From a virus, in IMG/VR virus record IMGVR_UViG_3300022698_000267, positions 37,575 to 101,574 of that record: a DNA stretch of 64,000 nt; one strand, given 5' to 3'. Below, piece by piece: positions 2,556-62,414 of this stretch. Both the position numbers and the translations under genes were made by a program. The notes beneath the pieces were generated by a model, which saw nothing but the letters and a program-made list of their open reading frames with translations, searched no databases and was not told the DNA's origin. Positions within the stretch are counted from its first letter, which is position 1, and each line of letters begins with the position of its first letter.

Positions 2556-3662
2556 ATGATGGAGAAACTTCTAAATGTTTTGATTATAGAGGATGATGAA
2601 AAGATTGCTGAGCTGGAGTCTTCGTATCTTTCATCAATTTCAAATGACGTTTTTATAGCCTATACAATGAAAGAGGCTCTGAAGATTATTGATAAGGAGG
2701 ATGATAAAATAGACATTATTGTTCTAGATTTAAATCTTCCAGATAGCAAAGAGATTGATTCTTTCTTTTTGATTAAACAGAAAGTTAGAAAAATACCTAT
2801 TATCGTTGTAAGTGGTATTTCTATAGAATCTATAGCTATTGATGCTGTTAGTCGAGGAGCACAAGATTATATTGTAAAAGAGTACTTGAATGAGTACGTA
2901 TTAATTAAATCTATTAGATATGCCTTAGAAAGACATTCTATTTTTTTAGCAATGGATACGATGGTCGAACAGAAAACTAAAGAAATTGCAATGGCCTCCA
3001 AGTTTTCATTTGAATTAGCTAAGGCAGTAACCTGGATTCTAGAAAATGACATTCTAGACAATGAAGTAGACTATCTGTTAAGAAAATTTGGTTCTATTTT
3101 AGAAGCAGATAGAATGACAGTTTTAAAATTACAAGGAACAGAAAATTCAGTTAATATACAAGATTATGAGGAAGCTTGTAATTATGGCATCACTGATTTT
3201 TGGCAGAAAGATACTGTTGAAACGTGTGAATTCGAAGATTTAAACTTTCCTTGTTTCGATGACAGAAACTATGATATGAATTGGTGGCATAAAGCTTTGG
3301 TTGACAGGAAAATTAAACATATATTGCCAAAAGATACAACTGGACCTACAGTTAATAGATTGATTGTTAAATATGGGAGCAAATCTATCATAGTCGTTCC
3401 AATTTACTTAGCTGATGCTACCCCTTGGGGATTACTAGTTTGTGAACAGTGCAATTATGAAAGACACTGGACAGAGTTGGAAATTAGGAATTTGGGAATT
3501 CTTGCTCCATTAATTTCATTGGTTTATGAAAGAAATGAAAAGAATAAACGATTAGGAGAACTTTCTAAAAGAGCAGATAATGTTCTGTTGGACTTACAAG
3601 AACAACATAGTAAATTCAAGGGTTTAAATGAAGAGATGAGGGAACATGAACGAACTAGATAA
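2556..3662 (+). CDS. response-regulator receiver (CheY-like REC) domain protein with C-terminal GAF-like domain
   Basis: N-term LIIEDDE...DIIVLDLNLPD...PIIVVSG...KEY matches the REC acidic pocket, phospho-acceptor Asp, Ser/Thr and Lys positions; C-terminal 220 aa alpha/beta GAF-like. Confidence 0.55.
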   Translation: MMEKLLNVLIIEDDEKIAELESSYLSSISNDVFIAYTMKEALKIIDKEDDKIDIIVLDLNLPDSKEIDSFFLIKQKVRKIPIIVVSGISIESIAIDAVSRGAQDYIVKEYLNEYVLIKSIRYALERHSIFLAMDTMVEQKTKEIAMASKFSFELAKAVTWILENDILDNEVDYLLRKFGSILEADRMTVLKLQGTENSVNIQDYEEACNYGITDFWQKDTVETCEFEDLNFPCFDDRNYDMNWWHKALVDRKIKHILPKDTTGPTVNRLIVKYGSKSIIVVPIYLADATPWGLLVCEQCNYERHWTELEIRNLGILAPLISLVYERNEKNKRLGELSKRADNVLLDLQEQHSKFKGLNEEMREHERTR

Positions 3663-7820: not shown

Positions 7821-7829
7821 ATTTTAATC

Positions 7830-8240
7830 CTAGAAAGAATAGATATTTACGAAAGCATTAGGGGAATGTAATTTTAGAACAAATTCATTATTTATCACTT
7901 CCCATTTGTATTTTAACATTATTATAGTATCTTGGGTACTTTCATAGGAACCAAGATTTTCAAAAATAAGTCTTTTCTTCCAACCTATTGGAGACCCACC
8001 TTCATCAACTTTGGTTATAAAAAGAGACGCTCCGGACTGCAATTCGTTTTCAACTATAACTTCCACATTATCGAAGGAATTTCCAGATTTAACAATCATG
8101 TATATACTTCCTGAACTAGATTTTGTAGCTGGATCTTCAGAAAAATTTATATCCATTGTTGTATCTTCTGGATTAAGTGAGGTTAAGATTTGATATGGAG
8201 CAACATTAGTATTAGATAGAAAAATGTTTGTGTTCATCAT
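7830..8240 (-). CDS. hypothetical small protein, paralog of 8237..8644
   Basis: Shares N-terminal NIF(L/I)S, PIGW and YKW motifs with neighbour; ATGA coupling. Confidence 0.5.
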   Translation of the reverse strand: MMNTNIFLSNTNVAPYQILTSLNPEDTTMDINFSEDPATKSSSGSIYMIVKSGNSFDNVEVIVENELQSGASLFITKVDEGGSPIGWKKRLIFENLGSYESTQDTIIMLKYKWEVINNEFVLKLHSPNAFVNIYSF

Positions 8241-8644
8241 TCCTCCACAAAGATATCAAAAATTGAATGACAATCTTGAGCTGTGATTTTGTATATATTA
8301 TCTAACACAATCCATTTGTAAACGAATGGAACTACTAAGTCAGATTGATTTGAAAATTCAAGATCATCATATATTATTTCATTTGTCCATCCAATTGGAT
8401 TCCCAAGGGTATCTGCTTTACTAATCTGTAATAAAATCCCGCTGACAGAAGTGGGATTTACAAACAATTTAATTCTAGAATAAGAAGTACCCCTTATAAC
8501 CACTAGAAATAGGAGATTAGATACTTTTCCAGTTACAAAACCATCTTTCAATGTAATATTCAAATCTTTTTCATAAGAAATAGATGGGAGGATTTTTTGA
8601 TACGGTTCAAAACTATTCTTAGAGATAAAAATGTTATTTGACAT
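8237..8644 (-). CDS. hypothetical small protein, paralog of 7830..8240
   Basis: Track start is TTG; in-frame ATG at 8644 with TAGGA RBS 6 nt upstream. Confidence 0.5.
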   Translation of the reverse strand: MSNNIFISKNSFEPYQKILPSISYEKDLNITLKDGFVTGKVSNLLFLVVIRGTSYSRIKLFVNPTSVSGILLQISKADTLGNPIGWTNEIIYDDLEFSNQSDLVVPFVYKWIVLDNIYKITAQDCHSIFDIFVEE

Positions 8645-8794
8645 TGTCAATCCTAAATAAGAGTTTTAATTTAGGTTTTTGAACCTCTGTACAACAAAGC
8701 ATTGAGGGCATACAGGCGATTGATGTGAATTTGTATAACTTTATATTCATGTGAATCTAAATTAGCAATGTGGGGGATTTGAGAGGGGTTAACT

Positions 8795-10909
8795 TCAATG
8801 CAAAACATTTGTTTCTAAATGTGTAAATTCTTCGTTCGTTATCTTGAAAGAATCAGGTCGTATCTTTGCATAGTATTCTGGTTTTTGAAAGATTCCATTT
8901 TGAAAATCGGCAAGTCGAACTGTATCTCTTCCAGTCCGGAGCAATGGGGCTCCATCAATAAAAAGCAAACCATTTGGACAAGTCCAAACTCTAACACCTC
9001 TTGGTGGACCTAATCCTGTCTTTCGAAATGGAACATTTCTTATGCCATCTACAACTTCACATTTTACTTCTTGACCAGAAATAGTGTCGAAGAAAGTCCA
9101 ACTAAAATCATTATTCCATGGATCCCTCAAACGAAATGTATCGTAAACTTGATCTTCCCACAGTATCATTGGATCTACTTCTAGATCGGAGGTTGCATCC
9201 TCTTCATGAAGGTCACCAACGTACTTTTCAAAACCATCATCTGGTTTTGAATCAAGGACTGCATCTGGTTCCATAAGGGATGGAATATTTTTAATAATCT
9301 TTTGATCTTCTTCTGCCTGTTTTTCTTCAAGTTCTTTTAGTTTCTTTTCTTTTCTGCGATTCCTTTCCTCTAAAATCTGTGCTTCTTTCTTTTTCTCTTT
9401 CAGTAATTTTCTTTCATAATCTACTTTCTTTTCCTGCATCCTCTCTTTAACTTTTCTTTCCAGTTTTTCCCTTCTTATTCGTTTTTCTTTTTCTTTTTCA
9501 TCCTCAATATCCTGTTTGTCTCCAAGAGGATTTTCCATTAACTTTGTGATTCTGGCATATTCACTTTTTGCTTCTTCAGAAGTTATTTTTCCTTTTAGAA
9601 ACTTCTCTTGTAGTGTGAAAAGTTCATCATTCAGTCTGCTAGCTTCTCTTGCAAATTCTACTGAGTTTCTAGTTCTGGTTACGATTGGTTGTTCGTCTTT
9701 TTGTTTTTCTCTGATCTGGTATTTAATTGCTAAAGAAGATTCTTCTGTTTCTAGTAATTTTTCGAATTTATCATAAGTCCAGTCGTTAGTTAATTCCCTT
9801 GGTTGGAAAGTTAATAATCTGCTATTTTTTCTAACACATTCAAGGCTTTTAAAAACTGCTCGAACACCTCTTTCTGCATCATCAGTATCTGTTTTTAAAA
9901 GCTCTCTGTGATAAGTTTCAATGTAAGCTAGGTAATTTGAAAATCCTGAATTAACTTTTGTCAAAATAAAGAAATCAAAATCTTCCAGATTTATGGTTCC
10001 ATCTTCAAATAATTCTAGTATAGATTTGGAAAGATCATCAAGAATATCTTCTGCCCTTTTCTTAATCTTCTTGTTTTTCTTTGGAAGAACAAACCATTTC
10101 CAGTAGTAGCCTAGAAATAGATTGAATAATTTCTCGTGTTCAGGCTTTATTCCAAATCTACCAATGTGGGAGTATCGAAAGTAAAGTGAAGTGACCGTAT
10201 CTTTTTTGCAGGTTGCGTACCAACTTGAAACATCCTTGTGAGGTGCATTATCAGATATATGATCTCTGTTGTACTGTGAAATTTTGAAGAATTGTCTTAG
10301 GTCTACTGAAAATCCAAACTGTCGATAAACAGGTGGTGATTTTTTCTCCATAATGCTTAGCAGATCAGAATATTTTTTCATCACCTCCATTATTTTTTCT
10401 TTAGATGTTCTTTCCAGTTTTGTTTGAATTTCTTTAATTGCATATTGAAAAATTTTGCTCTGGCCTTTAAGTGGTTTTGTTAGTAGAACTCGAACTCTTT
10501 TCGTTAGTGGAAGTTTTTGCCAGTACTCGAAAACTTCCACTACATTTCGTGGGAACTGTAATTCGATATTTCCTGCAATTGCTAATGTTTCTCGACCAAG
10601 TTTAACAGATTTTTTTGCTCTATCAAGTCTATTTTCTTCTCGCAACAATTCAAATTTTCTTCTGATTTTATTAGATTTTATATGTTTTTCGAAATCTTTC
10701 CACTGGTATCTATTGAAATTTTTTAATTCTTTTCTGTCATTTCTTCTAAGAAATGGAAGGTTTAATCTGGATCTTGGATCTTCTTTTATTCTGTACTCCC
10801 AGACCTTGGATATGAAAAATTCAATCTTCTTCCAATCCTCGCTTTTTACTTCTTCACATCTTCTAATTCTATTATCGATTCTTCGAATACTAGCAATACT
10901 TTTTGACAT
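8795..10909 (-). CDS. hypothetical protein (704 aa) with K/E-rich coiled-coil core
   Basis: Long ORF; central EKEKRIRREKLERKVKERMQEKK low-complexity; no recognisable catalytic motif. Confidence 0.55.
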   Translation of the reverse strand: MSKSIASIRRIDNRIRRCEEVKSEDWKKIEFFISKVWEYRIKEDPRSRLNLPFLRRNDRKELKNFNRYQWKDFEKHIKSNKIRRKFELLREENRLDRAKKSVKLGRETLAIAGNIELQFPRNVVEVFEYWQKLPLTKRVRVLLTKPLKGQSKIFQYAIKEIQTKLERTSKEKIMEVMKKYSDLLSIMEKKSPPVYRQFGFSVDLRQFFKISQYNRDHISDNAPHKDVSSWYATCKKDTVTSLYFRYSHIGRFGIKPEHEKLFNLFLGYYWKWFVLPKKNKKIKKRAEDILDDLSKSILELFEDGTINLEDFDFFILTKVNSGFSNYLAYIETYHRELLKTDTDDAERGVRAVFKSLECVRKNSRLLTFQPRELTNDWTYDKFEKLLETEESSLAIKYQIREKQKDEQPIVTRTRNSVEFAREASRLNDELFTLQEKFLKGKITSEEAKSEYARITKLMENPLGDKQDIEDEKEKEKRIRREKLERKVKERMQEKKVDYERKLLKEKKKEAQILEERNRRKEKKLKELEEKQAEEDQKIIKNIPSLMEPDAVLDSKPDDGFEKYVGDLHEEDATSDLEVDPMILWEDQVYDTFRLRDPWNNDFSWTFFDTISGQEVKCEVVDGIRNVPFRKTGLGPPRGVRVWTCPNGLLFIDGAPLLRTGRDTVRLADFQNGIFQKPEYYAKIRPDSFKITNEEFTHLETNVLH

Positions 10910-11695: not shown

Positions 11696-14380
11696 ATGAC
11701 CGAGTACACAATGTTCACTAAAGAAGAATTTGAAGGGTTTCTGGAAAGTAATTTCCCTGGTTTATGGTCCACAGCAGACACTCCTTATTCGAAAGAGCAT
11801 ATCTACTCAATTCAAACTGATAAAGATGATATAACAATTCGAATTTTTTCTTCTGTGGATGTTAGAACCAATCATTCTAGAGATATTGGAAAAGATGCTA
11901 TTCGATGTATTTTATGGAACGATATTGAAAATCGTCCAATTGGTAAAACCACTAGAGTTAATAGGGTTGGTGTTGTTTGGGAAAGAATTCTTTCTAGAAT
12001 TTCTGTTCTTCGAAAAAGGGCTATCAAAACTCAAGTAGTTGATTACGAGTACATAAAAGCTTTACTTTCTAGTCCTTCAAATAATGGTAGTACTTTTGTA
12101 ACCTCTTTACGAGATCAGTTAGAGAAGAAACATTTCTTATCTCCAGCCCAATTGAATTGTATTATTGGAAAGGGAACTGGAAGAACTACTATTGAGCAAC
12201 AGGTCCTTAGAAAAGATCCAAATTTTCAAAAGCGTTACATTAGTCAAGAAGATGAATCTATTGAAAAAGAGGTAGAAAAAGAAGAAAAACTAGTTGTTAG
12301 AACAAAAGAACTAGTTGATAATAGTTTATTAGTGGAAGATACTCAAAATGAAGATAACATCGAATTAATTTCCACAGATGGATACCCTTATCCATATGAT
12401 ACTTTTAACAAATTACAATCTAGAATTTTCCCTTACATTAAAGAAGATTGTAATGTTGTTGTTGCAGGAAATACAAGCTCTGGAAAAACAATATGTGCAG
12501 AATTGTTAATGTTTGCGACTTTGGCTAAAGGAAGAAAAGTGATTTATCTTAGCCCATTAAAAGCATTAACTCAAGAAAAATATGAAGATTGGCAAAAGAC
12601 ATTTTCTGGTTATAAAATTGTCATCATGACAGGTGATTATCAAATGACTGCTGCTCTTCAGAAGAGAGTAGCCGCTGCAGATATTATTCTGATGACCTCT
12701 GAAATGCTGGATAGTCGTACGAGGATGATTGAAGCAGAGAAGAACTTCTGGTTTTATGAAGTTGGTCTTTTAGTAGTTGATGAAGTTCATATTCTTGGAC
12801 AGGCTGGTGATAGAGGACATCCAATGGAAGTTGGAATTATGCGATTTACCAAAGTTAATCCAACCTGTCGTGTTGTTTTCCTTTCAGCAACGATGCCAAA
12901 TGTCAATGAATTAGGTCTTTGGTTAGCTATTTTGAATGAAAAGAAAACAGTATCTATTACAAGTCATTGGCGACCAGTTGAACTAACGAAGCATTATATC
13001 ACTTACGAAGAGGTTCGATTTGGTAGCGGATTTATGAATTATAAAGCTACACAATCTAGAAAAATATCTGCAGCAGTCAGAGTAATTGCCTCTAAGAAGG
13101 ATCAGAAATTTTTAGTATTTTGTCATGATAAAAATGCTGGAAGATTACTGATGAATACCTTTTCCAAACTTCATAAGGAAGATATTCGTTTTCATAATGC
13201 GGATTTGAATTTGAATGAGAGACAAGAAATTGAAAATGCCTTCATTCATGGAACATTACGAGTTTTAGTAAGTACTCCTACACTTTCATGGGGTAGGAAT
13301 GTTCCTGCTAGAAACGTGATTTCAGTAGGAGTACATCGTGGACTTAGTGAGATAGATGAGCTTGATTTAATTCAGATGGCTGGACGTGCAGGTCGTCCTC
13401 AATATGATAAAGAAGGTGATGTCTATTTCTTAGTTCCAAAACAGGAAGAATCTAAGTGGAAAACCCTAATAGAGAATCCAAAGGATATAACATCTGGATT
13501 AAAAAGGATTGATGCCTTAGCCTTTCATATTCTTGGAGGTGTACATGTAGGAGATATTTACCAAGCAAATGATGCTTTTGTGTGGTACGAAAGATCATTG
13601 GCTCACTTGCAAAATGCAGAGTTTACAAAAGATGATCTAGAAGAAGTTTTGAACACTCTTTTAGAATATAAAATGTTAACACGTTCTGAAGATAATAAAT
13701 TAATTCTTACTGGACTTGGAAAGGTCAGTGTCTTCTTTTATTTTAGTCCTTTTGATGTCTATCATTGGTTTAAAAATTTCGATGATCTTATTCGAATTGA
13801 TCCAAATCTTCTAGAGGATGACTACACAGTTTCTTGGGCAATGTCAGCTATTCCGAGTAATGATCCTGGATTCTCTCGAAAGAACATTGTTGAAGATTAT
13901 TTAACTTCTTGGACTGCTATACTTAGAGGAAGGGGTGTAAATCTTTCTAAGACGGGTGTACCTTTGGTCAATGTTCTTCCAAATGTTATAGCTTTCTATG
14001 ATTGTTTATCAGGCAATGAGGGACAACGTGATCCATTGATTGGAGCCATTTCTAGATCAATTAAACAGGATATTGGAAGATCATCTAATGCTATATCTTT
14101 AATAGATTCAATGTATGCCAGATGGAGCAGAAGAAATTTAACTGTTTCTAATCTTTTTGACGTTCTAGAATTAAGAACGAAGTATGGAGTTGGTTATGAG
14201 TTGTTAGACTTAGTAAGAATTCCAAATATCGGTGCAAGAAGAGCAGCTAAGTTATACAATGAAGGCTATAAAACTTCAGAGGATTTAAAAAAGGCTACTG
14301 AGGAAGATCTTGCTTCTATTCTTGGTGAAAGAACAGCTCTTAGGATAAAAAGATTCTTTCGAAAAGAGAATCAGACATAA
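11696..14380 (+). CDS. Ski2/Hel308-family superfamily-2 helicase with 230-aa N-terminal extension and C-terminal HhH region
   Basis: Motif I VVAGNTSSGKT, motif II DEVH, SAT, QMAGRAGRP (motif VI), C-terminal IPNIGARRAAKL helix-hairpin-helix typical of Hel308 domain 5. Confidence 0.8.
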   Translation: MTEYTMFTKEEFEGFLESNFPGLWSTADTPYSKEHIYSIQTDKDDITIRIFSSVDVRTNHSRDIGKDAIRCILWNDIENRPIGKTTRVNRVGVVWERILSRISVLRKRAIKTQVVDYEYIKALLSSPSNNGSTFVTSLRDQLEKKHFLSPAQLNCIIGKGTGRTTIEQQVLRKDPNFQKRYISQEDESIEKEVEKEEKLVVRTKELVDNSLLVEDTQNEDNIELISTDGYPYPYDTFNKLQSRIFPYIKEDCNVVVAGNTSSGKTICAELLMFATLAKGRKVIYLSPLKALTQEKYEDWQKTFSGYKIVIMTGDYQMTAALQKRVAAADIILMTSEMLDSRTRMIEAEKNFWFYEVGLLVVDEVHILGQAGDRGHPMEVGIMRFTKVNPTCRVVFLSATMPNVNELGLWLAILNEKKTVSITSHWRPVELTKHYITYEEVRFGSGFMNYKATQSRKISAAVRVIASKKDQKFLVFCHDKNAGRLLMNTFSKLHKEDIRFHNADLNLNERQEIENAFIHGTLRVLVSTPTLSWGRNVPARNVISVGVHRGLSEIDELDLIQMAGRAGRPQYDKEGDVYFLVPKQEESKWKTLIENPKDITSGLKRIDALAFHILGGVHVGDIYQANDAFVWYERSLAHLQNAEFTKDDLEEVLNTLLEYKMLTRSEDNKLILTGLGKVSVFFYFSPFDVYHWFKNFDDLIRIDPNLLEDDYTVSWAMSAIPSNDPGFSRKNIVEDYLTSWTAILRGRGVNLSKTGVPLVNVLPNVIAFYDCLSGNEGQRDPLIGAISRSIKQDIGRSSNAISLIDSMYARWSRRNLTVSNLFDVLELRTKYGVGYELLDLVRIPNIGARRAAKLYNEGYKTSEDLKKATEEDLASILGERTALRIKRFFRKENQT

Positions 14381-28335: not shown

Positions 28336-29049
28336 ATGATCTACGTTTGTGGTGACGTTCACGAATTTAAAGACAAAGATAAACTGTCTTCCAAAAATTG
28401 GCCTGAAGGAAAACTTCTTTCCAAAGATGATTATTTAATAGTTCTTGGAGACATGGGACTAATCTGGGATGCTATATCCTCCCCAAGAGAAAAAAGATTA
28501 ATTGAATGGTATAATCAAAAATCATGGACCACTTTATTCATAGATGGTAACCATGAAAACTTTGATCGTCTATTCTCAGATGAGTTTGGCAATGTACCAA
28601 AATTTGGATCGACTGTCAAACAAATATCCGATTCTATATACTATTTAAAAAGAGGAAATGTATACAAAATAGATAATCGAAAGGTCTTTACCTTTGGAGG
28701 TGGGGAATCCATTGATAAAAATAGAAGATTAACCAGGATTAGTTGGTGGTATCAAGAGATTCCAAATTATCGAGAAATGGATAAAGCTATTGATAAATTG
28801 AAAAATTTTGATAATTGTGTCGATTTTATCCTCACACATGCTTGCTCAAATCTTGCATTTGAGATGTTAATGCAAAGAGCCGACCTAGGATATAAAAGAG
28901 ATGCTGAAAGGGCATTACGGTCCTTCTTAGACTGGATAGAAAGGAATGTGCAATTTAAACAATGGCATTTTGGCCATTATCATGATGATTTTAAATTAGA
29001 TAATAAGCATTTTCTGCATTATGAAAATAAACCAATGCGAATTGTTTAA
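28336..29049 (+). CDS. calcineurin-like metallophosphoesterase
   Basis: CGDVH, LGDMG, GNHEN, GHYH motifs. Confidence 0.65.
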   Translation: MIYVCGDVHEFKDKDKLSSKNWPEGKLLSKDDYLIVLGDMGLIWDAISSPREKRLIEWYNQKSWTTLFIDGNHENFDRLFSDEFGNVPKFGSTVKQISDSIYYLKRGNVYKIDNRKVFTFGGGESIDKNRRLTRISWWYQEIPNYREMDKAIDKLKNFDNCVDFILTHACSNLAFEMLMQRADLGYKRDAERALRSFLDWIERNVQFKQWHFGHYHDDFKLDNKHFLHYENKPMRIV

Positions 29050-44358: not shown

Positions 44359-44931
44359 ATGAGAGAGCAATTACCACAATTTGATCTTGGAGCACATATC
44401 AATATCCCTAAAGATAAACAAATTTTTACTGAAGAAGATCTGCCGGCCATCATCCTTACCAATCCGAAGTATCCTCATAATGTTGGAGCTGCTGTTCGTG
44501 GAGCATCATGTTATGGTGCTAAAACAGTAATTTTTACTGGAGATAGACTCCTTACTAGTCTAGCCTTGGTTTCTAAAACCAAGAAGGGTTGGCGACTTCC
44601 AAGAGAGGAGCGAATGAAGGGATACAAAGACGTCAGAATTTTCAATGATGACAAACCATTCAATCGATTTCCAGCAGATACCAGTTTCGTAGCCATTGAG
44701 GTTAAACCAAATTCCGAATGGCTCCCGAATTTTGCACATCCAAATAAAGCAGTTTACATTTTCGGTCCTGAGGATGGTTCAATACCATCAGTTTATTTGC
44801 GTCATTGTCATCGATTTGTCATGATTCCAACTAAGCATTGTTTGAATCTTGCTGTTGCAGTGAATACTGTTCTATACCAAAGGAATTGTTCTTTCGGTGT
44901 TGTAACAGCGGATGATATCGATATGATCTAA
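44359..44931 (+). CDS. SpoU/TrmH-family (SPOUT) RNA 2'-O-methyltransferase
   Basis: LTNPKYPHNVGAAVRGASCYGA (motif I) and VYIFGPEDGSIP...MIPTKHCLNLAVAVNTVLY (motifs II/III). Confidence 0.65.
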   Translation: MREQLPQFDLGAHINIPKDKQIFTEEDLPAIILTNPKYPHNVGAAVRGASCYGAKTVIFTGDRLLTSLALVSKTKKGWRLPREERMKGYKDVRIFNDDKPFNRFPADTSFVAIEVKPNSEWLPNFAHPNKAVYIFGPEDGSIPSVYLRHCHRFVMIPTKHCLNLAVAVNTVLYQRNCSFGVVTADDIDMI

Positions 44932-44945
44932 GAAAGGAGATTTTT

Positions 44946-46121
44946 ATGGACAATACAATCGATGTTTGTTTTACCTTTGATACTACTGGATCAATGTACC
45001 CTTGTCTAACACAGTTGCGACGATATCTTAGTGAGACCTGTGAGCAATTATTTAAAGACATACCTGACCTTCGGATAGCATTCATTGCCCATGGCGACTA
45101 TGATGATGCACCGTACACGTATGTAACCAAGGTCTTTAACTTTTCCAGAGACAAGAATAAGATTGTCAATTTTGTTCGTACAGTTGGTCCGACGGATGGA
45201 TATGACAGACCAGAATGTTACGAGCTGGTCTTACATAAGGCTAGGACTGAACTTGATTGGCGATCTGGTCGTTCCAAAGTTTTGGTTATGATTGGTGATG
45301 ATGTTCCTCATGGTCCAGATTACAGGAAAAATCGTGATCGTATTGACTGGAGGAATGAATTGGGACTTCTTCTTGAAGCACAAATCAATGTTTATGGTGT
45401 GCACTGTATGCCTGGAACCAGATGGCATTCTAAACCTTTTTATACAGAGATTGCTAAAAAAACTGGAGGGTTTTACCTGACTTTAGATCAATTCTCTTAT
45501 ATTCGTGATTTGGTTATGTCCATTTGTTATAAGCAGGAAAGTCCTGAGGCTTTGGATCGTTTTGTAGATGAGATTAAAGTTCAAGGTCGTATGAATCGAA
45601 ATCTTGCTTTTTCAATCAGTGTCATGACCGGAGAAGCTACATATTCGGAAGAGGAGGAAGTGTACGAGGCTCCAACATACAAAAGACCTCCAAGAACAAG
45701 GAAGTATGCTTTTGAAAAGGATGGACTTATACCTGTTCCATCTGGTCGTTTTCAGGTTCTTCCTGTTGATGATGAATGTACAATCAAAAATTTTATTGCT
45801 GAGCAGGGTGTATCATATGAAAAGGGCCGGGGATTTTATGAACTGATAAGACATGGCAGAAAAAGATACAAAGTACAACCATACAAAGAAATTATCCTTA
45901 TGGACCGTGAATCTGGTGATCTTTTTACTGGTGCAGAACCAAGGAAGATGCTGGGTTTACGTCCTTTCATGGCTAGGAGTGATTACAAAGGAGAAGTATA
46001 CGATACTTTACCTCCTAATCAATTGCCAAATTATCGGGTATTCATTCAATCGACATCTTATACCAGGAAACTTGTTCCTGGAAGCAGCTTGTTATATGAA
46101 GTGGAGGATTGGAAATACTAA
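44946..46121 (+). CDS. von Willebrand factor A domain protein
   Basis: MIDAS CFTFDTTGSM; VLVMIGDDVPHGP; AAAGGAG RBS. Confidence 0.55.
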   Translation: MDNTIDVCFTFDTTGSMYPCLTQLRRYLSETCEQLFKDIPDLRIAFIAHGDYDDAPYTYVTKVFNFSRDKNKIVNFVRTVGPTDGYDRPECYELVLHKARTELDWRSGRSKVLVMIGDDVPHGPDYRKNRDRIDWRNELGLLLEAQINVYGVHCMPGTRWHSKPFYTEIAKKTGGFYLTLDQFSYIRDLVMSICYKQESPEALDRFVDEIKVQGRMNRNLAFSISVMTGEATYSEEEEVYEAPTYKRPPRTRKYAFEKDGLIPVPSGRFQVLPVDDECTIKNFIAEQGVSYEKGRGFYELIRHGRKRYKVQPYKEIILMDRESGDLFTGAEPRKMLGLRPFMARSDYKGEVYDTLPPNQLPNYRVFIQSTSYTRKLVPGSSLLYEVEDWKY

Positions 46122-54036: not shown

Positions 54037-54250
54037 AAGAGAAATATGGTCTGGTTTCTTTGGAATAGATGAATATGGTACTCAGCCTGAATGTGGACAA
54101 GAGATTGAAATAGAAGTAGAAGAGGATTGTATAATCAATGACAAATATGGAATTCGACCCTCATTTTCAGTGGAATGTCCAAAATGTCATGGAACTATAG
54201 CATGGCCTCAACAGTGGGAAGTTGTGGAGAATGATAATGATAATAAATGA
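54011..54250 (+). CDS. Cys-containing hypothetical protein
   Basis: ORF. Confidence 0.35.
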   Translation: MMKLRTVCEREIWSGFFGIDEYGTQPECGQEIEIEVEEDCIINDKYGIRPSFSVECPKCHGTIAWPQQWEVVENDNDNK

Positions 54251-55205
54251 AAAACTAACAGTTAATGAAAAAATAATAGTGTATATGATCTTTGGTTCTC
54301 ATCTATATGGAACTAACACACCTGATTCTGACACAGATTACAAAGGGGTTTTCTTTCCAACTAAAGAACAGATATTTCTTGGAAGAATCCCAAAATCTTA
54401 TTCCACCAGCCCAAAGAAAACAGGACAGGGACAAAAAAATACCTCTGATGATACTGATATAGAAATCTATTCTCTCCACTACTTTTTAAAATTAGCATGT
54501 GAAGGACAAACTGTTGCTATAGACATGCTTCACGCTCCAAGTCATATGCTTTTGGAATCTTCTGAGATTTGGGATTTCATTGTAGGAAATAAACATAGAT
54601 TCTACAGCAGAGATATGGATTCTTTTATTCGCTATGCTAGGAAACAGGCGGCTAAATATGGAATAAAAGGTAGTCGTTTAGCCGTAACCAAAGAATTTAT
54701 AGATTTACTAAATTCTGTTCCAGATGATACAAGACTTTCTGAGTTATGGAATAAACTTCCAGATGGTGAACATTGTTATTTTGTGGAAGATGACCCAAAA
54801 GGAATTGCTCAATATCAAATCTGTGGAAAAAAGTTTCAAGCTACTAGTAAAGCATTGTATGTTAAGAAAATAGTTCAAAGTTTCTATGATCGTTATGGTG
54901 AACGTGCTAAACAGGCTGAATTAAATCAAGGGATTGATTGGAAAGCAGTTTCACATGCTTTAAGAGCCGCTTATCAAACCAGGCAAATTTTAACAGAAGG
55001 AACCATAACTTATCCTCTAAAAGAATCTGGTTTTCTACGGGATGTGAAGCAGGGTTATTTTCACTACACTAAATACGTTGGTCCTGTTTTAGAAGCTCTT
55101 ATGGATGAACTTGAAGAGCTTTCTAAAAATAGTGATCTTCCTGCAACAGCCGATAGAAAGTACTGGGATACCTTCCTCATAGATCTCATCGATGCAACTC
55201 TTTAA
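54237..55205 (+). CDS. polymerase-beta-superfamily nucleotidyltransferase (minimal NTase; RlaP/CD-NTase-like)
   Basis: FGSHLYGTNTPDSDTDYKGVF = hG[GS]x9-13DxD; downstream TVAIDMLHAP third acidic strand; GGAG 7 nt before ATG. Confidence 0.6.
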   Translation: MIINEKLTVNEKIIVYMIFGSHLYGTNTPDSDTDYKGVFFPTKEQIFLGRIPKSYSTSPKKTGQGQKNTSDDTDIEIYSLHYFLKLACEGQTVAIDMLHAPSHMLLESSEIWDFIVGNKHRFYSRDMDSFIRYARKQAAKYGIKGSRLAVTKEFIDLLNSVPDDTRLSELWNKLPDGEHCYFVEDDPKGIAQYQICGKKFQATSKALYVKKIVQSFYDRYGERAKQAELNQGIDWKAVSHALRAAYQTRQILTEGTITYPLKESGFLRDVKQGYFHYTKYVGPVLEALMDELEELSKNSDLPATADRKYWDTFLIDLIDATL

Positions 55206-57956: not shown

Positions 57957-58292
57957 TTATATCTTTATCTTCATAACTTTCATTTTAATTCTAAGACCAT
58001 AACCATCTTCAACATCATCAGGTAGCCATACTTGCACTTCTTGTTTAATTTCTTGAATGATATTTTTTTCATCTACAACAACAGTAACTCTCCATCTTTG
58101 GGAATCAACAGTTAGTGCAGTACCAGGTGTAATTACTCGAATCATATTAGGTCGTAGAGCATGAACAAAACCCAAAGCAGTAGAATCCCATTCTAATCCT
58201 TTTAGAAATTCTAATACTGGAATACTAGTACTACCAAAACGAATACTTTCTGGCATATAGGTTTTCCCTTGCATACTTCTATAATCTTTCAT
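57957..58292 (-). CDS. hypothetical protein
   Basis: AAGGAGAG RBS. Confidence 0.45.
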   Translation of the reverse strand: MKDYRSMQGKTYMPESIRFGSTSIPVLEFLKGLEWDSTALGFVHALRPNMIRVITPGTALTVDSQRWRVTVVVDEKNIIQEIKQEVQVWLPDDVEDGYGLRIKMKVMKIKI

Positions 58293-58312
58293 TTACTTCT
58301 CTCCTTTATTTA

Positions 58313-58534
58313 TCACAAACCATTTGCTATTTTTACCTCTTTTATCATTTTTTCAAGGGCAAACACATCAACTCGGCCTCCCCAATCGGCAATGGTTTGT
58401 TTATCTTCTTTTGAAACATATCCACTTACAATAGATGCTCGTAATTGTAATTCCCCATTCACTTCTACAGTACCAATACCTAAAGTTCCTCTGGCTCCAC
58501 TAACCCATGTAACATCTTTAAGAATTGTAGACAT
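58313..58534 (-). CDS. hypothetical protein
   Basis: AAGGAGG RBS before ATG (track start GTG). Confidence 0.45.
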   Translation of the reverse strand: MSTILKDVTWVSGARGTLGIGTVEVNGELQLRASIVSGYVSKEDKQTIADWGGRVDVFALEKMIKEVKIANGL

Positions 58535-58544
58535 TACCACCTCC

Positions 58545-58721
58545 TTATGAAGAAATAATTAAAATTGGTTTTACATCATGAATAGGATTGTTGCAGAATT
58601 TTCCTTTTTCCTTAGTCCAACCACATGAACATTTTTCCCAACAATCGCACTCCTCCATTTTAGCACCACACTTTACACAATGAACACTTTTATCAATTAA
58701 TTTATCAAGCAATGTATCCAT
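58545..58721 (-). CDS. Cys-rich 58-aa protein
   Basis: AAGGA RBS; CVKCG...CDCWEKCSCGW. Confidence 0.4.
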   Translation of the reverse strand: MDTLLDKLIDKSVHCVKCGAKMEECDCWEKCSCGWTKEKGKFCNNPIHDVKPILIISS

Positions 58722-58722
58722 T

Positions 58723-58992
58723 TTAATCCTTTTTAGGGTATAGAACAGATTGTTGCAAGGCCAGTGAATTCTCTAGCCATTTTTCAAGCATCAACCACTC
58801 AGTATTTTTGCCTTTTCTTTTTACAACTTGCATTGTAGAGCGACATAGTTCATTTGCTGATTTGAGAGTTTTTTCAAGTTTATCTATTCTTTCCTGCATT
58901 AATTCAATGTACTCACATCTTGAATTAATTTTAGTTGTTTCTGAACGCATATTTTTGATAATAGTTTCTGTATTTTCTTTAGACACTTCCAT
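58723..58992 (-). CDS. hypothetical coiled-coil protein
   Basis: AAGGA RBS. Confidence 0.4.
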   Translation of the reverse strand: MEVSKENTETIIKNMRSETTKINSRCEYIELMQERIDKLEKTLKSANELCRSTMQVVKRKGKNTEWLMLEKWLENSLALQQSVLYPKKD

Positions 58993-59006
58993 TTTCAAAT
59001 CATCCT

Positions 59007-59414
59007 TTAACTCAAAGTTCTACGTTTTTTAGATCTTTCACCCATGAATTCCCGTTTGTGTTTCTTTAGAAGACGAATAACATTTCCTTTAGTAGTTTCA
59101 CATTTCTCAGCTATTTGTTTTATTGTCATATCCCGCATTTTTTTAGGAGGTATCTGCAAAAAGTTCTCTTGCTTTACTCCAGGATGTATAGAAAATCTTC
59201 TTCCACCCCTTGGTTTCTGTACAAAGATGTTTATCTCTTTTAGATACCGTGTAACTCCATGTGGTGAAAGTCCCAATTTTCTTGCTAGAGGTCTTACATA
59301 AAACTCGCATTCTTTATAGAGATCAGCAATCCATTCCTCTGCCGTTTTGTAATTGGTTTTATTCCAAGTGTTGTAAGTGTCTTTAAAACTTTCCCAATCT
59401 ATACGAGTATACAC
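59007..59414 (-). CDS. DNA-binding protein with two HTH-like segments (GTG start)
   Basis: CGGAGG 6 nt before GTG; RKLGLSPHGVTRYL and IKQIAEKCETTKGNVIRLL. Confidence 0.45.
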   Translation of the reverse strand: MYTRIDWESFKDTYNTWNKTNYKTAEEWIADLYKECEFYVRPLARKLGLSPHGVTRYLKEINIFVQKPRGGRRFSIHPGVKQENFLQIPPKKMRDMTIKQIAEKCETTKGNVIRLLKKHKREFMGERSKKRRTLS

Positions 59415-59415
59415 A

Positions 59416-59673
59416 TTAATCCTCCGTTTTAGTAGTAACTGGTTCCCAACAATCACATTGCTTTACAGGAGCAAATTGGTCGTCTCGTTGAACAATATAT
59501 CCCATTTTTCTTTTGATTGGAGCAGGTAGTGGATAACGACAAATACCATCTCTAGTAAATTTTTCGGGGTTTAATTCGGAAATAACTGTTTTCCATTCTG
59601 ACCAGATTGGTTCCCATTTACAAGTCAGACACTTAAACTCAATTTGATTCTTCGATGATTGGGTCTTCTCCAT
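59416..59673 (-). CDS. Cys-rich small protein
   Basis: CLTCKW...CDCW. Confidence 0.4.
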   Translation of the reverse strand: MEKTQSSKNQIEFKCLTCKWEPIWSEWKTVISELNPEKFTRDGICRYPLPAPIKRKMGYIVQRDDQFAPVKQCDCWEPVTTKTED

Positions 59674-60448
59674 TGAAAATAACTCCTACTCTATTGGTTA
59701 CTTTAGAAAATACAGGCATATCTAGTCTTCTAACTTCTGTTCTTTCAATTTCTAGATCAGGATTCTCTCTTGCTTCATGTTTTGGTGGAAGTTTTTCAAT
59801 TTCTTTAGTATCAAACTTCCTAAGGACTGTTCTTTTTTGGAAGTACATTCCTCGTTTAAAATTAGCAGGATAATCATTCCAGTTCACACCTTTTTCAAAT
59901 AACATTTCCTGCATATCTTTTCCATTTTTCTTGTGTAATTGTTTGTGGGAATAGTATACTCTTGCTGCCATTGAAATACTATTTTTGGTAGCATCAAATT
60001 CTCTCCACAAAATAACATTGGCTGCTTCTTGTTTAGTCGGGACTTCCCATGCTCTACAATCGAATAGAGCAACTCTGTGTGCTTTTTCAGGAATCATCTT
60101 ACTTAAATAAGCATTAAAGGTTGCAGTGGTCACAGAAGTTAAAACAGAAACCATTTTCAATATTTTTCTATCAAAAAATATTTGGCTTTTCAAATTGTCA
60201 CTGTAATATACCAGACTAATTTCATCTGATTGTGTATGACCAATACAGGCATTAGTTTCTTTAACAAGAGTATCAACAACAATACCCATTAATTCTGATA
60301 GTCTTACATCATAAGGACGTTCTAATCCTTTTGTAAATTGACTGAAATTTTTACCATCAATTCGTACACAGATTGGAACCATAGGAAGAAACTTTCGTTT
60401 ACTTTCACGTCCTTCATACATTTTCATTCTGTCGCCTAAATCATCCAT
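59639..60448 (-). CDS. Thg1-like protein (tRNA-His guanylyltransferase family 3'-5' polymerase), catalytic residues intact
   Basis: PICVRIDGKNFSQF and IGHTQSDEISLVYY match Thg1 R(L/I)DGRNF and GQSDE metal-binding motifs. Confidence 0.7.
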   Translation of the reverse strand: MDDLGDRMKMYEGRESKRKFLPMVPICVRIDGKNFSQFTKGLERPYDVRLSELMGIVVDTLVKETNACIGHTQSDEISLVYYSDNLKSQIFFDRKILKMVSVLTSVTTATFNAYLSKMIPEKAHRVALFDCRAWEVPTKQEAANVILWREFDATKNSISMAARVYYSHKQLHKKNGKDMQEMLFEKGVNWNDYPANFKRGMYFQKRTVLRKFDTKEIEKLPPKHEARENPDLEIERTEVRRLDMPVFSKVTNRVGVIFNGEDPIIEESN

Positions 60449-60462
60449 TTATCATTTCCCTC

Positions 60463-61281
60463 TTATTTTGTATCAACAATTGGGTCTTCTCCATTGAAAA
60501 TAACTCCTACTCTATTGATTACTTCGGAAAATGGAGGCATGTCTAATCTTCTGACTTCCGTTCTTTCAAATTTCAGATCAGGATCTTTTCTTGCTATGTG
60601 TTTTGGTGGAAGATCTGTAATTTCCTCTTTATTGAACTTTTTGGAAACTTTTCTTCTTTGGAAAAAAGTTCCTCGTTGAAAACTAACAGGATAATCGTTT
60701 TTCCAATCCATATCTTTTTCAAGTAACATTGCTAATCTATCTTCTTCATTCTTTCCCAACAATTGTTTATGTGAGTAATATTGTCTTGCTGCTATTGAAA
60801 TACTTTTTTCAATTGCGACAGTTTCTTCCCATAGAATAATATTGGCTGCCTCTTCCAATGTTGGGACTCCCCAAGCTTTGCAAGAAAACACAGCAACACG
60901 GTGTGCTTTTTCTGGTATTACTTCTGGAAGGTATCTATTAAATGTTGCAGTAGTTACAGAAGAGATGACAGAAATCATTTTCATTATTTTTCTATCGAAA
61001 AATATTTGACCCTTCAAATCGTCATTGTAATAAATCAGATTGATTTCATTTGATTGTATATACCCAATGCAAGCATTAGTTTCTTTGACAATGGCTTCAG
61101 TAACAATCCACATCAAATCTCGCATTCGTGTATCGAAGGGTTTATCTAATCCTTTTGTAACTCGCTTCCAATCTATACCAGTAACTTGTATACAAATTGG
61201 AATCAAGGGCATAAATCTTCGATTACTTTCACTACCTTTGTAAAGTCTCGTTCTTTCAAATAAATCGTCTAATTTGTTCAT
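60463..61281 (-). CDS. Thg1-like paralog with degenerate active site
   Basis: About 45% similar to neighbour; PICIQVTGIDWKRV and IGYIQSNEINLIYY: first Asp to Thr, second Asp to Asn. Confidence 0.65.
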   Translation of the reverse strand: MNKLDDLFERTRLYKGSESNRRFMPLIPICIQVTGIDWKRVTKGLDKPFDTRMRDLMWIVTEAIVKETNACIGYIQSNEINLIYYNDDLKGQIFFDRKIMKMISVISSVTTATFNRYLPEVIPEKAHRVAVFSCKAWGVPTLEEAANIILWEETVAIEKSISIAARQYYSHKQLLGKNEEDRLAMLLEKDMDWKNDYPVSFQRGTFFQRRKVSKKFNKEEITDLPPKHIARKDPDLKFERTEVRRLDMPPFSEVINRVGVIFNGEDPIVDTK

Positions 61282-61290
61282 TTTAATCTC

Positions 61291-61533
61291 CTATAAAATG
61301 TCTTTATTCCAGCCGGGTTTTGTGTTATCAAGTCTTTTATACCAATCTTGATTGGCTAAGGTTATTGATGTACTCTTATTTTCATTCTGATCTTTCATGA
61401 AAGTCAAAGCTCGTAGAACGTAAAGATCTTTTTCTAGATATTCTTGTGCTACGTCAAGATGACAATGCTTTTTTACTACTTCCCTCATTGTCATAGAAAC
61501 TAATAGTCCGTCAATGATTTGTGAAGCATCCAT
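61291..61533 (-). CDS. hypothetical protein
   Basis: AAAGGAAA RBS. Confidence 0.45.
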   Translation of the reverse strand: MDASQIIDGLLVSMTMREVVKKHCHLDVAQEYLEKDLYVLRALTFMKDQNENKSTSITLANQDWYKRLDNTKPGWNKDIL

Positions 61534-61536
61534 TTA

Positions 61537-62022
61537 TCATTTCCTTTCTTTCCAATCAGTTATTTTAAAGGCTCTATCTTCGGTTATGTGAACAGAAAAT
61601 AATTTATCAAAACCTTCATTCATACTTGGTATTTCTAATCTTTGATAGCTGGCTATTACAGCTACTTTTGGAAGATTTTTATCAAGTCGTTTTTCATTTC
61701 TTTTTATACAGATATCTAAATTTGCCTGAAAATAAAAACCAATAATCGGCATTTTTACTTTCTTCAATAAGGGAAAGTATTTTTCTCTTTCTTTTTTAGA
61801 GGGATTGGTATTATCGATAACCATTGGTTGTTCTGTTTCAATACAAAATTGAATTAATTTTGATTCTCGATTTCTGGTTTTCAACATATCCAGATTGACT
61901 CTTATATGCGTATCTGCAAAGTTCTTCTGATAGAAGGTTGATTTTCCGGTGGCTGGGATTCCAATAAAAATTATGTTATTCCTTTTCCAAGAAGCTGTTG
62001 ACTTGTTTGAACTGCTTTCCAT
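61537..62022 (-). CDS. polynucleotide 5'-kinase, T4 Pnk kinase-domain-like, no phosphatase domain
   Basis: Walker A IIFIGIPATGKST, Walker B VIDNTN, lid CIKRNEKRL; GGAGGG RBS. Confidence 0.65.
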   Translation of the reverse strand: MESSSNKSTASWKRNNIIFIGIPATGKSTFYQKNFADTHIRVNLDMLKTRNRESKLIQFCIETEQPMVIDNTNPSKKEREKYFPLLKKVKMPIIGFYFQANLDICIKRNEKRLDKNLPKVAVIASYQRLEIPSMNEGFDKLFSVHITEDRAFKITDWKERK

Positions 62023-62023
62023 T

Positions 62024-62263
62024 TTATATCAAACCCTCCATCTTTAACAAAAATTGACAAGCTTTTAATCTAGTTTTAAATCCATCAGTCCCATTAAGAG
62101 GATGAGGTTTTCTCCACACAGCAGACCATCCAGAATATTTACCTAAATTAAAAACCTGTCCAATTAACTTGCCCCCAATGTAGAAAGCATAATGACTATT
62201 TTGTAACTTCTTAAAACCATAGTCCTCAACTTTTCCATTTACATTTAAAGAATACTTCGACAT
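62024..62263 (-). CDS. hypothetical protein, first gene of kinase/Thg1 operon
   Basis: TGGAGAAAAA RBS. Confidence 0.45.
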   Translation of the reverse strand: MSKYSLNVNGKVEDYGFKKLQNSHYAFYIGGKLIGQVFNLGKYSGWSAVWRKPHPLNGTDGFKTRLKACQFLLKMEGLI

Positions 62264-62414
62264 TTTTTCTCCAATAAAATCTTAAACTAATTTTAGTATA
62301 TTTTCAGGAAATACTAAAAATAATCGAACTTAAATTTTAGGGATGCAACCAGGTAAAAAATTATATAGGTTTTGAAGATGCTGTTGCTGAACAATTCATA
62401 GAAGGTGCTTAAAG

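Follow-up and report, generated by a model that had tools for sequence, protein, structure and literature searches.

A link between a kinase and Thg1 in bacteria was predicted by comparative genomics in 2010 by Anantharaman, Iyer and Aravind (Biol Direct 5:43, PMC2904730), who reasoned that the kinase generates the 5'-phosphorylated terminus which is then used by Thg1. Here, we analysed a 64,000-nucleotide stretch of DNA (hereafter the window) from the IMG/VR virus record IMGVR_UViG_3300022698_000267, positions 37,575 to 101,574 of that record, in which the gene for a 161-aa protein resembling this kinase lies on the minus strand upstream of two genes for Thg1-like proteins (TLPs), which we name TLPa and TLPb. 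The pathway suggested by this arrangement is a rediscovery of the 2010 prediction and not a newly recognised one. What is new is that the pairing is rare in phages, that it was apparently assembled independently and that it includes a TLP paralogue that seems to be catalytically dead but still under selection.

The 2010 study also recorded Thg1 genes in phage 201phi2-1 and in mimivirus, with no kinase link drawn for them; Thg1 was described as sporadic in jumbo phages by Iyer et al. (2021), and a 2019 review of the TLPs nowhere mentions a kinase. No biochemical test of the kinase-TLP pairing was found in full-text literature searches. The in vivo role of the bacterial and viral TLPs has been a standing question since the finding of 5'-end repair in vitro in 2010. 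5'-truncated tRNAs are repaired in vitro by the TLP of Bacillus thuringiensis (BtTLP), in which D30 and D75 bind two Mg2+ ions, R28 and R131 contact the NTP and E12 acts as a brace, the D75A variant being nearly inactive. Both BtTLP and Thg1 are dimers of dimers. TLPs have been assayed on 5'-monophosphorylated tRNA, which is first adenylylated or guanylylated, and a 5'-OH end would therefore need a kinase. This agrees with the premise of an earlier reading of the window sequence (the original prediction) that Thg1-type enzymes need a 5'-phosphate or triphosphate.

The 161-aa kinase and its bacterial family

The kinase gene is located exactly where the original prediction had placed a 161-aa open reading frame (ORF) on the minus strand. 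In the ORF map of the window it starts with ATG, and a Shine-Dalgarno-like GGAGGG sequence is present 5' of this codon (Table 1). In searches with hidden Markov models (HMMs), the protein passed the gathering cut-off of Pfam AAA_33, the family to which the original prediction had pointed, with 46.5 bits against 27 (E 6e-12); the cut-off of KTI12 was passed as well (26 bits against 22), and the protein matches the 'polynucleotide kinase' family of PHROG. Matches in NCBIfam to PNK-3'Pase, bacterial Pnkp and PSTK are partial, cover the kinase module and stay far under the full-length cut-offs. The best of them by E-value is PSTK (1.2e-12), where the model TIGR03574 aligns to residues 50-141 alone and reaches 47.8 of the 290.5 bits required. 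No HAD or other phosphatase domain was detected in the protein by Pfam, NCBIfam or AlphaFold 2 (AF2) modelling, as had been claimed, and the kinase fold fills all 161 residues.

A phmmer search against the sequences of the PDB ranked the kinase domain of mammalian PNKP first (E 5.5e-10), with an alignment spanning the P-loop, the 'VN-x-D-x-L' segment and 'VIDNTNP'. A profile of 22 family members gave the same best match (PNKP, 5.7e-19), followed by Clostridium thermocellum Pnk, the kinase module of Pnkp (CthPnk; 1.7e-9), a Mucorales RNA 5'-OH kinase (1.2e-7), PSTK (6e-6), Pnkp1 (3.7e-5) and T4 Pnk (4e-4 to 1.6e-3), the last over part of the profile (positions 54-118). The AF2 model (pLDDT 85.8, pTM 0.81) has the fold of the Pnk kinase module. 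In a Foldseek search of the PDB with this model, ranks 1 to 17 were all polynucleotide 5'-kinases (PNKP, Mucorales KIN and CthPnk; TMq 0.67-0.74; E 1e-10 to 4e-7), and PSTK was 18th (3e-6), gluconokinase 19th (1e-5) and T4 Pnk 43rd, with adenylate kinases also at lower ranks. The description of the protein as 'T4-Pnk-like' is therefore loose and holds only in the broad sense of a Pnk-type kinase; T4 Pnk itself is a marginal match, and PNKP, CthPnk and the Mucorales enzymes are much closer.

The motifs quoted in the original prediction (GxxxxGKST, DNTN and KRNxKR) proved to be real and invariant in the family, and correspond to G21-x4-G26-K27-S28-T29, D70-N71-T72-N73 and K107-R108-N109-x-K111-R112. 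Residues G21, G26, K27, S28, T29, D45, R50, D70-N71-T72-N73, N109 and R112 are invariant in the 22 family members, and the lid position R108 is nearly so, varying between Arg and Lys. The Walker A P-loop (G21 to T29) aligns to the P-loop of PNKP, D45 aligns to the Asp of PNKP 'VNRD' in the position of the general base, and T72 together with R108, N109 and R112 occupies the positions of the phosphodiester-anchoring Thr and the lid. K21 (beta and gamma phosphates), S22 (Mg2+) and the general base D38 (D35 in T4 Pnk) are essential in CthPnk; T86 of T4 Pnk and T80 of CthPnk hold the first phosphodiester and the lid arginines are placed on the gamma phosphate of the NTP. The correspondence of K27/S28, D45, T72 and R112 to essential residues of CthPnk and T4 Pnk argues for an assignment as a polynucleotide 5'-kinase-type protein. 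From the sequence comparisons and the model, we conclude that it is probably such an enzyme, Pnk-like in the broad sense and not particularly T4-like, and we infer from this its kinase activity and an RNA substrate.

The protein scored 217 bits (E 2.4e-65) against an HMM built from 120 family members, which places it in the family that partners bacterial TLPs in operons. It is 43-51% identical to 21 aligned members, with a mean identity of 47% to bacterial ones, and keeps all 27 invariant columns; judged by its sequence, it is a bona fide member of this TLP-partner kinase family. The protein database contains hundreds of stand-alone homologues of about 145-160 aa with 44-54% identity, the typical length in the family being about 149 aa. 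A scan of one genome per prokaryotic species yielded at least 561 relatives, and gene neighbourhoods were counted in the best 80 loci, of which 72 were informative (at least 800 nt of downstream sequence). A TLP gene is directly downstream on the same strand in 59 of the 80 loci and in 56 of the 72 informative ones (78%), and the two genes usually overlap, often by about 11 nt. These loci span at least seven phyla, including Planctomycetota, Cyanobacteria, Bacillota, Bacteroidota, Chloroflexota and Gammaproteobacteria. In Acetivibrio clariflavus and in metagenomic contigs, for example, about 11 nt are shared by the kinase gene and the Thg1+Thg1C gene downstream of it, and two further family members show the same arrangement. 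Membership of this family and the adjacency to TLP genes support the central idea of the original prediction, that a stand-alone 5'-kinase supplies 5'-phosphates to a Thg1-type enzyme. The order kinase-then-TLP on one strand is also seen in the window, as had been noted, with an 80-aa ORF in between.

Some members of the family have other neighbours. In three metagenome contigs (L006-L008, about 6001..9670), the kinase-TLP pair is directly followed by Hen1 and a gene for a Pnkp-like kinase-metallophosphatase, so that four RNA-repair genes are clustered and encode two distinct polynucleotide kinases. When the window kinase itself is set aside, its homologue with the best E-value (P0002, 54% identity, in L131 857..7246) is without a TLP neighbour and is followed by ankyrin/TPR proteins and two CRISPR-associated genes (Cas_NE0113 and Cas_Cas02710). 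A gene for an R2K-clade ATP-grasp protein comes after the kinase-TLP pair in a few loci, and another is present near one viral TLP; this gene was considered as a third core partner and rejected, being present in 1 of the 80 reference loci and a few others.

Two Thg1-like proteins beside the kinase

TLPb matches Pfam Thg1 (E 3.4e-29) and phrog_4717 (1.3e-81), and aligns to BtTLP (4KGK) with an E-value of 1.3e-41, the R-x-D, S-D-E, D-x-R and W-R-x-x-D-x-x-K-N motifs all being aligned. None of the 14 signature positions is changed, and the three catalytic carboxylates and the NTP-binding residues (in BtTLP E12, R28, D30, S74-D75-E76, K99, D129, R131, R147, D150 and N154) are kept. Among 36 columns that are at least 90% conserved in 87 other TLPs, TLPb differs at three, none of them catalytic. 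It is presumed from these residues to be an active template-dependent 3'-5' polymerase.

TLPa is also a member of the Thg1 family in Pfam (E 1.5e-20), but it differs at 16 of the same 36 columns and at 11 of the 14 signature positions. This is the sole broken signature among 66 database homologues, the others having no change or one. Q32, T34, N78, S133, K135, E152, V155 and K159 replace R, D, D, D, R, R, D and N, respectively. By the 4KGK alignment, both Mg-binding Asp residues (T34 and N78 in TLPa) are lost, together with the NTP-contacting R28 and R131 (Q32 and K135) and the brace E12. The gene remains a full-length ORF, and the AF2 model of its product, whose high pLDDT of 95.5 is driven by the family alignment, has BtTLP as its best fold match. 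The synonymous divergence (dS) between TLPa and TLPb is 0.76 as compared to about 1.8 to the outgroup from the related contig L129, so that the two are mutually closest at synonymous sites, and hence the gene was duplicated within this lineage. Branch omega values of about 0.46 for TLPa and about 0.22 for TLPb, which are rough because they come from a three-sequence NG86 partition with a distant outgroup, suggest that TLPa is under relaxed but still purifying selection. TLPa is therefore a Thg1 family member by descent and, as read from its residues, probably a non-catalytic subunit and not an active enzyme. Of the 'TLP pair' of the original prediction, the presence of two Thg1-family genes is retained; what differs is that one encodes an apparently intact enzyme and the other a catalytically degenerate paralogue. 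Since BtTLP and Thg1 are dimers of dimers, a mixed oligomer in which TLPb would be joined by a non-catalytic TLPa seems the most economical reading.

Taken as a whole, we consider it fairly probable that the locus encodes an RNA 5'-OH kinase, a TLPb that performs fill-in and a non-catalytic TLPa. The kinase would phosphorylate the 5'-OH of an RNA that is missing 5' nucleotides, i.e. a cleaved or truncated structured RNA, most plausibly a tRNA. TLPb would then activate the 5'-phosphate with ATP or GTP and refill the missing 5' nucleotides in the 3'-5' direction with the opposite strand as template, while TLPa would probably bind RNA or act as a scaffold within a dimer or tetramer formed by both TLPs. 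The likely purpose for the phage would be to restore translation RNAs that are damaged by host nucleases leaving 5'-OH ends. Both the hand-over from the kinase to the TLP and such a counter-defence role are what we infer for the system.

Distribution in phages and competing explanations

TLP homologues are carried by 40 IMG/VR loci, many of them on contigs of 200-476 kb. A second TLP was found in none of these loci, and neither tblastn nor the family HMM, even at E<=1, revealed a kinase of this family at a distance of up to 6 kb from the TLP. A single-protein query returned no close relatives of the kinase in IMG/VR. The family-alignment scan returned one credible relative (L132), which shows the bacterial arrangement of overlapping kinase and TLP genes; 12 further matches were distant, unrelated P-loop proteins. 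GenBank phages include 164 records with a TLP and no close member of the kinase family; six weak matches to classic polynucleotide kinases (PNKs) were obtained, with E-values of 6e-8 or higher and at most 33% identity, and those inspected adjoin RNA ligases. The best of these, from Bacillus phage KLEB27-3, is a classic PNK of 331 aa whose neighbourhood contains an RNA ligase but no TLP, and it was set aside as belonging to another system. In the contigs L129 and L130, which hold the nearest relative of the window TLPs (70% identity to TLPb), the TLP gene is directly followed by an RlaP gene and no kinase is present. A 161-aa ORF upstream of the TLP in L129, kinase-like by length and position, is a coiled-coil protein with no match to the kinase HMM. 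The pairing is thus exceptional in phages.

TLPb is up to 58.9% identical to TLPs of IMG/VR and 46-59% identical to jumbo-phage TLPs, but its identity to 54 bacterial TLPs with a linked kinase does not exceed 33.8%, and the window TLPs fall outside the bacterial Thg1+Thg1C clade of the kinase operons. From these identities, the pairing seems to have been assembled again here, from a bacterial-type kinase and phage-type TLPs, and an independent assembly is an argument for functional coupling. BtTLP likewise groups with the phage TLPs, reaching 53% identity to them as compared to at most 35% to the kinase-paired bacterial TLPs, and therefore the existing biochemistry describes a clade that is usually without a kinase partner. 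As to the source of the window, few PHROG or Pfam matches were obtained in it, and a nucleotide search of the block of genes around the kinase against GenBank phages gave no match. A phage-type lysozyme is present, the genes are densely packed with many small ORFs, the contig (of which 64 kb was inspected) is reported as 273,563 bp, and the nearest TLP relatives are on IMG/VR and huge uncultured-phage genomes. The window is probably derived from a giant phage.

Several observations weigh against the proposed 5'-repair pathway. The kinase is missing within 6 kb of the TLP from all 40 viral loci and, as a close relative, from the GenBank phages, and 16 of the 72 informative bacterial members (22%) have no TLP neighbour, so that the kinase can work in other contexts. 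In the window, the 80-aa ORF parts the kinase from the TLPs, whereas bacterial pairs overlap. RNA-repair Pnks carry an Asp-x-x-Arg motif, in which the Arg three residues after the general base binds the first phosphodiester. In its place the window protein has D45-M46-L47-K48, Lys being found in at least 90% of the family members, with the invariant R50 at +5; PNKP, its best match, likewise has no Arg at +3. The searchable literature holds no biochemical or expression data on any member of the kinase family, the limits given above for the AF2 confidence and the omega values of TLPa also count here, and we know of no nuclease that leaves a 5'-OH inside the 5' acceptor strand of a tRNA. Finally, an RlaP gene is located nearby, which may point to a pathway based on a ligase in which the kinase could take part as well.

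This gene encodes a nucleotidyltransferase that passes the Pfam cut-off of the RlaP family (3.5e-13); it is located on the opposite strand, in a separate transcription unit, at a distance of about 4.4 kb from TLPb. Of the 40 IMG/VR loci, 4 have an RlaP-like ORF no further than 6 kb from the TLP. Damaged RNA 3' ends are extended by RlaP with one or two nucleotides (PMC12776372), and it is possible that RlaP is a functional associate of the kinase and the TLPs. With RlaP 4.4 kb away, the phage may rebuild both ends of clipped RNAs; such a TLP-RlaP link for 5' and 3' end rebuilding seems not to have been described before. The same gene, being named for its association with RNA ligases and repairing RNA 3' ends, can be read for a heal-and-seal route, where the kinase would ready 5' ends for an RNA ligase encoded elsewhere in the genome of about 273 kb (the inspected sequence being 64 kb of it), RlaP would restore 3' nucleotides, and the adjacency of the TLPs would be incidental or the TLPs occasional users. 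Phage PNKs do normally occur with RNA ligases (Bacillus phage KLEB27-3, PBC2 and Ochrobactrum phage OC), some bacterial kinase-TLP operons continue into Hen1-Pnkp repair genes, and the 22% of informative bacterial members that lack a TLP neighbour fit such a route as well. However, no RNA ligase was recognised among the larger ORFs of the window, and the kinase lacks the 2',3'-phosphatase partner domain which ATP-dependent ligase pathways need. The kinase, moreover, belongs to the TLP-partner family with its 78% adjacency and not to the ligase-linked phage PNK families, to which the matches are weak as given above. We consider the heal-and-seal route unlikely on this evidence. An even more basic doubt, that the protein is no polynucleotide kinase but a nucleoside, nucleoside monophosphate, sugar or other small-molecule kinase, or a PSTK/KTI12-like protein, could be raised from the breadth of AAA_33, from the PSTK and KTI12 matches, from the gluconokinases and adenylate kinases lower in the fold search and from the D-x-x-R motif, which is not literally conserved. 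Yet the NCBIfam matches reflect the shared kinase core only, the C-terminal tRNA-binding domain of PSTK and KTI12 is missing (161 aa as compared to about 250-270 aa), and the 17 best structures are all polynucleotide 5'-kinases with E-values ahead of PSTK and gluconokinase. No variation is seen in the family at the general-base Asp or at the acceptor-strand-binding Thr and Arg, and the conserved adjacency to TLPs is sensible only for an RNA-end enzyme, which makes a small-molecule kinase highly improbable.

A role of the TLPs in maturing or editing the phage's own tRNAs or tRNA-like RNAs instead of repairing damage, either by G-1 maintenance on tRNA-His or by 5'-editing of tRNAs whose acceptor stems are mismatched, with the kinase handling a 5'-OH processing intermediate, would suit the finding that 13 of the 40 viral loci have tRNA arrays no more than 6 kb from the TLP, as well as the cluster of unusual tRNA-like genes in the window. 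One tRNA of this cluster, with anticodon CAA, has non-canonical pairs at 2-71 (A.C) and 3-70 (C.A) according to Infernal, and the amoebal mitochondrial tRNAs that undergo TLP-dependent 5'-editing are recognisable by mismatches among acceptor pairs 1 to 3 (PMC6471195). The mismatched tRNA has no homologue in viral contigs by two search patterns that would allow a check of conservation, 5' mismatches are not enriched in the tRNAs close to other viral TLPs (about 3 of 64 have a mismatch in pairs 1-3, one being the normal C1-A72 of an initiator), and the cluster lies 38 kb from the operon. G-1 addition was dismissed, as both phage tRNA-His genes examined encode G-1 opposite C73 and hence do not require it. 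RNase P products carry 5'-phosphates, and a kinase is therefore unnecessary for ordinary maturation. We regard this role as very unlikely, and 5'-editing of tRNA(CAA) remains an idea of low probability. It enters a wider reading, which we also hold to be doubtful, in which the phage would have independently built a dedicated 5'-end rebuilding machine from the stand-alone 5'-OH kinase and a heteromeric TLP, with the dead paralogue as its scaffold or RNA-binding subunit, either reversing a host 5'-clipping nuclease or 5'-editing its own tRNA(CAA); if true, this would be the first physiological role of the kinase-TLP system outside eukaryotic organelles and would include the first Thg1-family pseudoenzyme subunit.

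The surrounding genes and comparison with known systems

The kinase and TLP genes are part of a co-directional block of 11 genes on the minus strand, which extends from 62263 to 57957 and whose members overlap or lie 1-20 nt apart. A terminator scan found no terminator-like site in it, and sigma-70 promoter-like matches around the block are at chance level. The short gaps and overlaps and the lack of terminator-like sites make co-transcription plausible, and the block may well be one transcription unit as read from its layout. The original prediction had given the operon as 62263 to 58545; the tight arrangement from 62263 was confirmed, but the block ends further on. The divergent region ahead of the block is the sole sizeable non-coding gap there and is likely to be its promoter region, judged from position only. 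The 79-aa ORF which begins the block stops 1 nt ahead of the kinase start and gave no significant family match in Pfam, PHROG or PADLOC. No match was found in the same three collections for the 80-aa ORF between the kinase and TLPa, nor any relative among the retrieved loci except identical copies in L001/L002. The six small ORFs past TLPb include one helix-turn-helix (HTH) protein and one Cys-rich protein, and their membership in the functional system is uncertain; ORF 59007..59456 has weak HTH-type matches only in Pfam, PHROG and PADLOC. No block gene matched a defence-system model of PADLOC. The 85-aa ORF overlaps the end of TLPb by 35 nt (59639..59673), and the Cys-rich ORF of 58 aa (58545..58721, minus strand) is zinc-ribbon-like, with C-x2-C, C-x-C and C-x-C in succession.

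Table 1. Coordinates of the features discussed, in window positions unless a related contig is named.
Feature	Position	Strand	Basis or remark
79-aa ORF, function unassigned; first gene of the block	62024..62263	-	ORF map
Stand-alone polynucleotide 5'-OH kinase-type P-loop protein, 161 aa	61537..62022	-	ORF, Pfam AAA_33, family HMM, AF2/Foldseek
80-aa ORF, function unassigned, between kinase and TLPa	61291..61533	-	ORF map
TLPa, 272-aa Thg1-like paralogue, degenerate active site	60463..61281	-	Pfam Thg1, signature comparison, AF2
TLPb, 269-aa Thg1-like protein, complete catalytic signature	59639..60448	-	Pfam Thg1, phrog_4717, BtTLP 4KGK alignment
Six small ORFs past TLPb (85, 135/149, 89/91, 58, 73/75, 111 aa)	57957..59673	-	Gene calls, gaps of at most 20 nt
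Divergent intergenic region, 151 nt, between minus-strand block and plus-strand ORF	62264..62414	.	ORF map
RlaP-family nucleotidyltransferase	54222..55205	+	Pfam RlaP
RlaP in closest related contig L129	8840..9859		Directly after TLP gene
RlaP in closest related contig L130	6277..7296		Directly after TLP gene
tRNA, anticodon CAA (called Leu)	22551..22624	+	ARAGORN; Infernal
Four tandem permuted tRNA-like modules	22679..23380	+	Rfam YrlA (below gathering score), fold z-scores
R2K-clade ATP-grasp in L147	6240..7115		
R2K-clade ATP-grasp in L065	8089..8937		
R2K-clade ATP-grasp in L003/L005			Fragment
R2K-clade ATP-grasp in L019	2282..3280		

The tRNA-like cluster of the window is located at 22440..23400. 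The tRNA with anticodon CAA has A73 and a short variable loop of 5 nt, and its CCA is not encoded. ARAGORN at its default settings missed two further sequences that match tRNA in Rfam, namely 22440..22509 (plus strand; 41 bits), which has a shrunken T-arm and a 4-69 A.C mismatch, and 23170..23315 (plus strand; 39.5 bits), where an insert of 88 nt interrupts the anticodon region; the latter match overlaps the permuted modules. The permuted modules run in the order T-arm, 3' acceptor strand, discriminator, CCA, a linker of 7-8 nt, complementary 5' acceptor strand and D-arm, and one of them is followed by a full anticodon arm with the anticodon AUG. They score 37.3, 34.3 and 27.1 bits against Rfam YrlA, below its gathering score of 69, with fold z-scores of -1.8 to -2.5, which leaves two readings, YrlA-like tRNA mimics or circularly permuted tRNA genes. 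Among the larger ORFs of the window, none was recognised as a Ro60/TROVE protein. In the other viral loci, TLPs in or beside a tRNA array (13 of 40) are seen in L009/L010 (5608..6792), L016, L020, L022, L024, L027, L028, L030, L031, L041, L042 and L045. L009/L010 carry a tRNA-His(GUG) with encoded G-1 and C73 about 320 nt upstream of the TLP. A tRNA called by ARAGORN near the TLP of L041/L042 (11900..11980) has an 8-nt anticodon loop with the four-base 'gtta' and could be a frameshift-suppressor-like tRNA or a false call.

Elsewhere in the window, all on the plus strand, a gene for a SpoU-family RNA 2'-O-methyltransferase (1e-15) is located directly upstream of one for a VWA-domain protein (44359..46121), and a calcineurin-like metallophosphoesterase (28336..29049; 1.3e-8) is a candidate RNA 2',3'-end phosphoesterase. 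A set of cell-like regulatory and cytoskeletal genes at 2556..3662, 11696..14380, 20436..21458 and 25997..27007 comprises a response regulator with receiver and GAF domains, a DEAD-box helicase with a C-terminal helix-hairpin-helix, an MreB/ParM-like actin (4e-20) and an ARPP-1/ARPP-2 domain protein.

A compact, apparently independently assembled viral pairing strengthens the case for the kinase and the TLP working together. If the proposed 5'-repair pathway is true, it would represent a second, ligase-independent way of RNA end repair, in which the 5' end is healed and the missing nucleotides are re-synthesised, and host nucleases that attack RNA 5' ends would be implied. If the pathway is not real, the locus still adds a new case to an already known gene neighbourhood. 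A naturally occurring, probably dead paralogue could reveal how RNA binding and catalysis are split among the subunits of TLP oligomers.

Among the known systems, the bacterial PNK-Thg1 operons of the 2010 prediction share with the window the kinase family, its invariant residues, the kinase-upstream order and the logic of a kinase step followed by 3'-5' extension. The window differs from them in its phage setting, in a 13-aa N-terminal extension on the kinase, in the inserted 80-aa ORF and in having two TLP genes, one of them degenerate, both of the phage/BtTLP clade (at most 34% identity). CthPnk and the Mucorales kinases RazKIN, LcoKIN and MciKIN have the same small fold (about 160-175 aa; TM 0.64-0.72) with the P-loop Lys and Ser, the Asp, the Thr and the lid Arg, and the Mucorales kinases are stand-alone and without a phosphatase, like the window kinase. 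However, the window kinase is 18-22% identical to these proteins and has D-x-x-K where they have D-x-x-R, and they feed RNA ligases (the Pnkp ligase domain or the fungal tRNA ligase) and not a 3'-5' polymerase.

Mammalian PNKP is the best match by both sequence and structure (family profile 5.7e-19; Foldseek 8e-11; 25% identity), with the motifs 'V-N-x-D-x-L' and 'V-I-D-N-T-N-P' in common, but it is a DNA repair protein with fused FHA and HAD phosphatase domains, whereas the window protein is a kinase module alone among RNA enzymes. T4 Pnkp shares the superfamily, the P-loop, the Asp general base, S/D-x-T-N, the R-N-x-x-R lid and the proposed role in phage RNA end-healing; the window kinase differs from it in lacking the HAD 3'-phosphatase and in having a TLP, not Rnl1, as its partner. 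Finally, all of the catalytic residues of BtTLP (4KGK/4KGM) are kept in TLPb. BtTLP and the jumbo-phage Thg1 of Pseudomonas phage 201phi2-1 are single-copy and without a kinase neighbour, and to this arrangement the window adds both a kinase and a paralogue that is, by its residues, probably dead.

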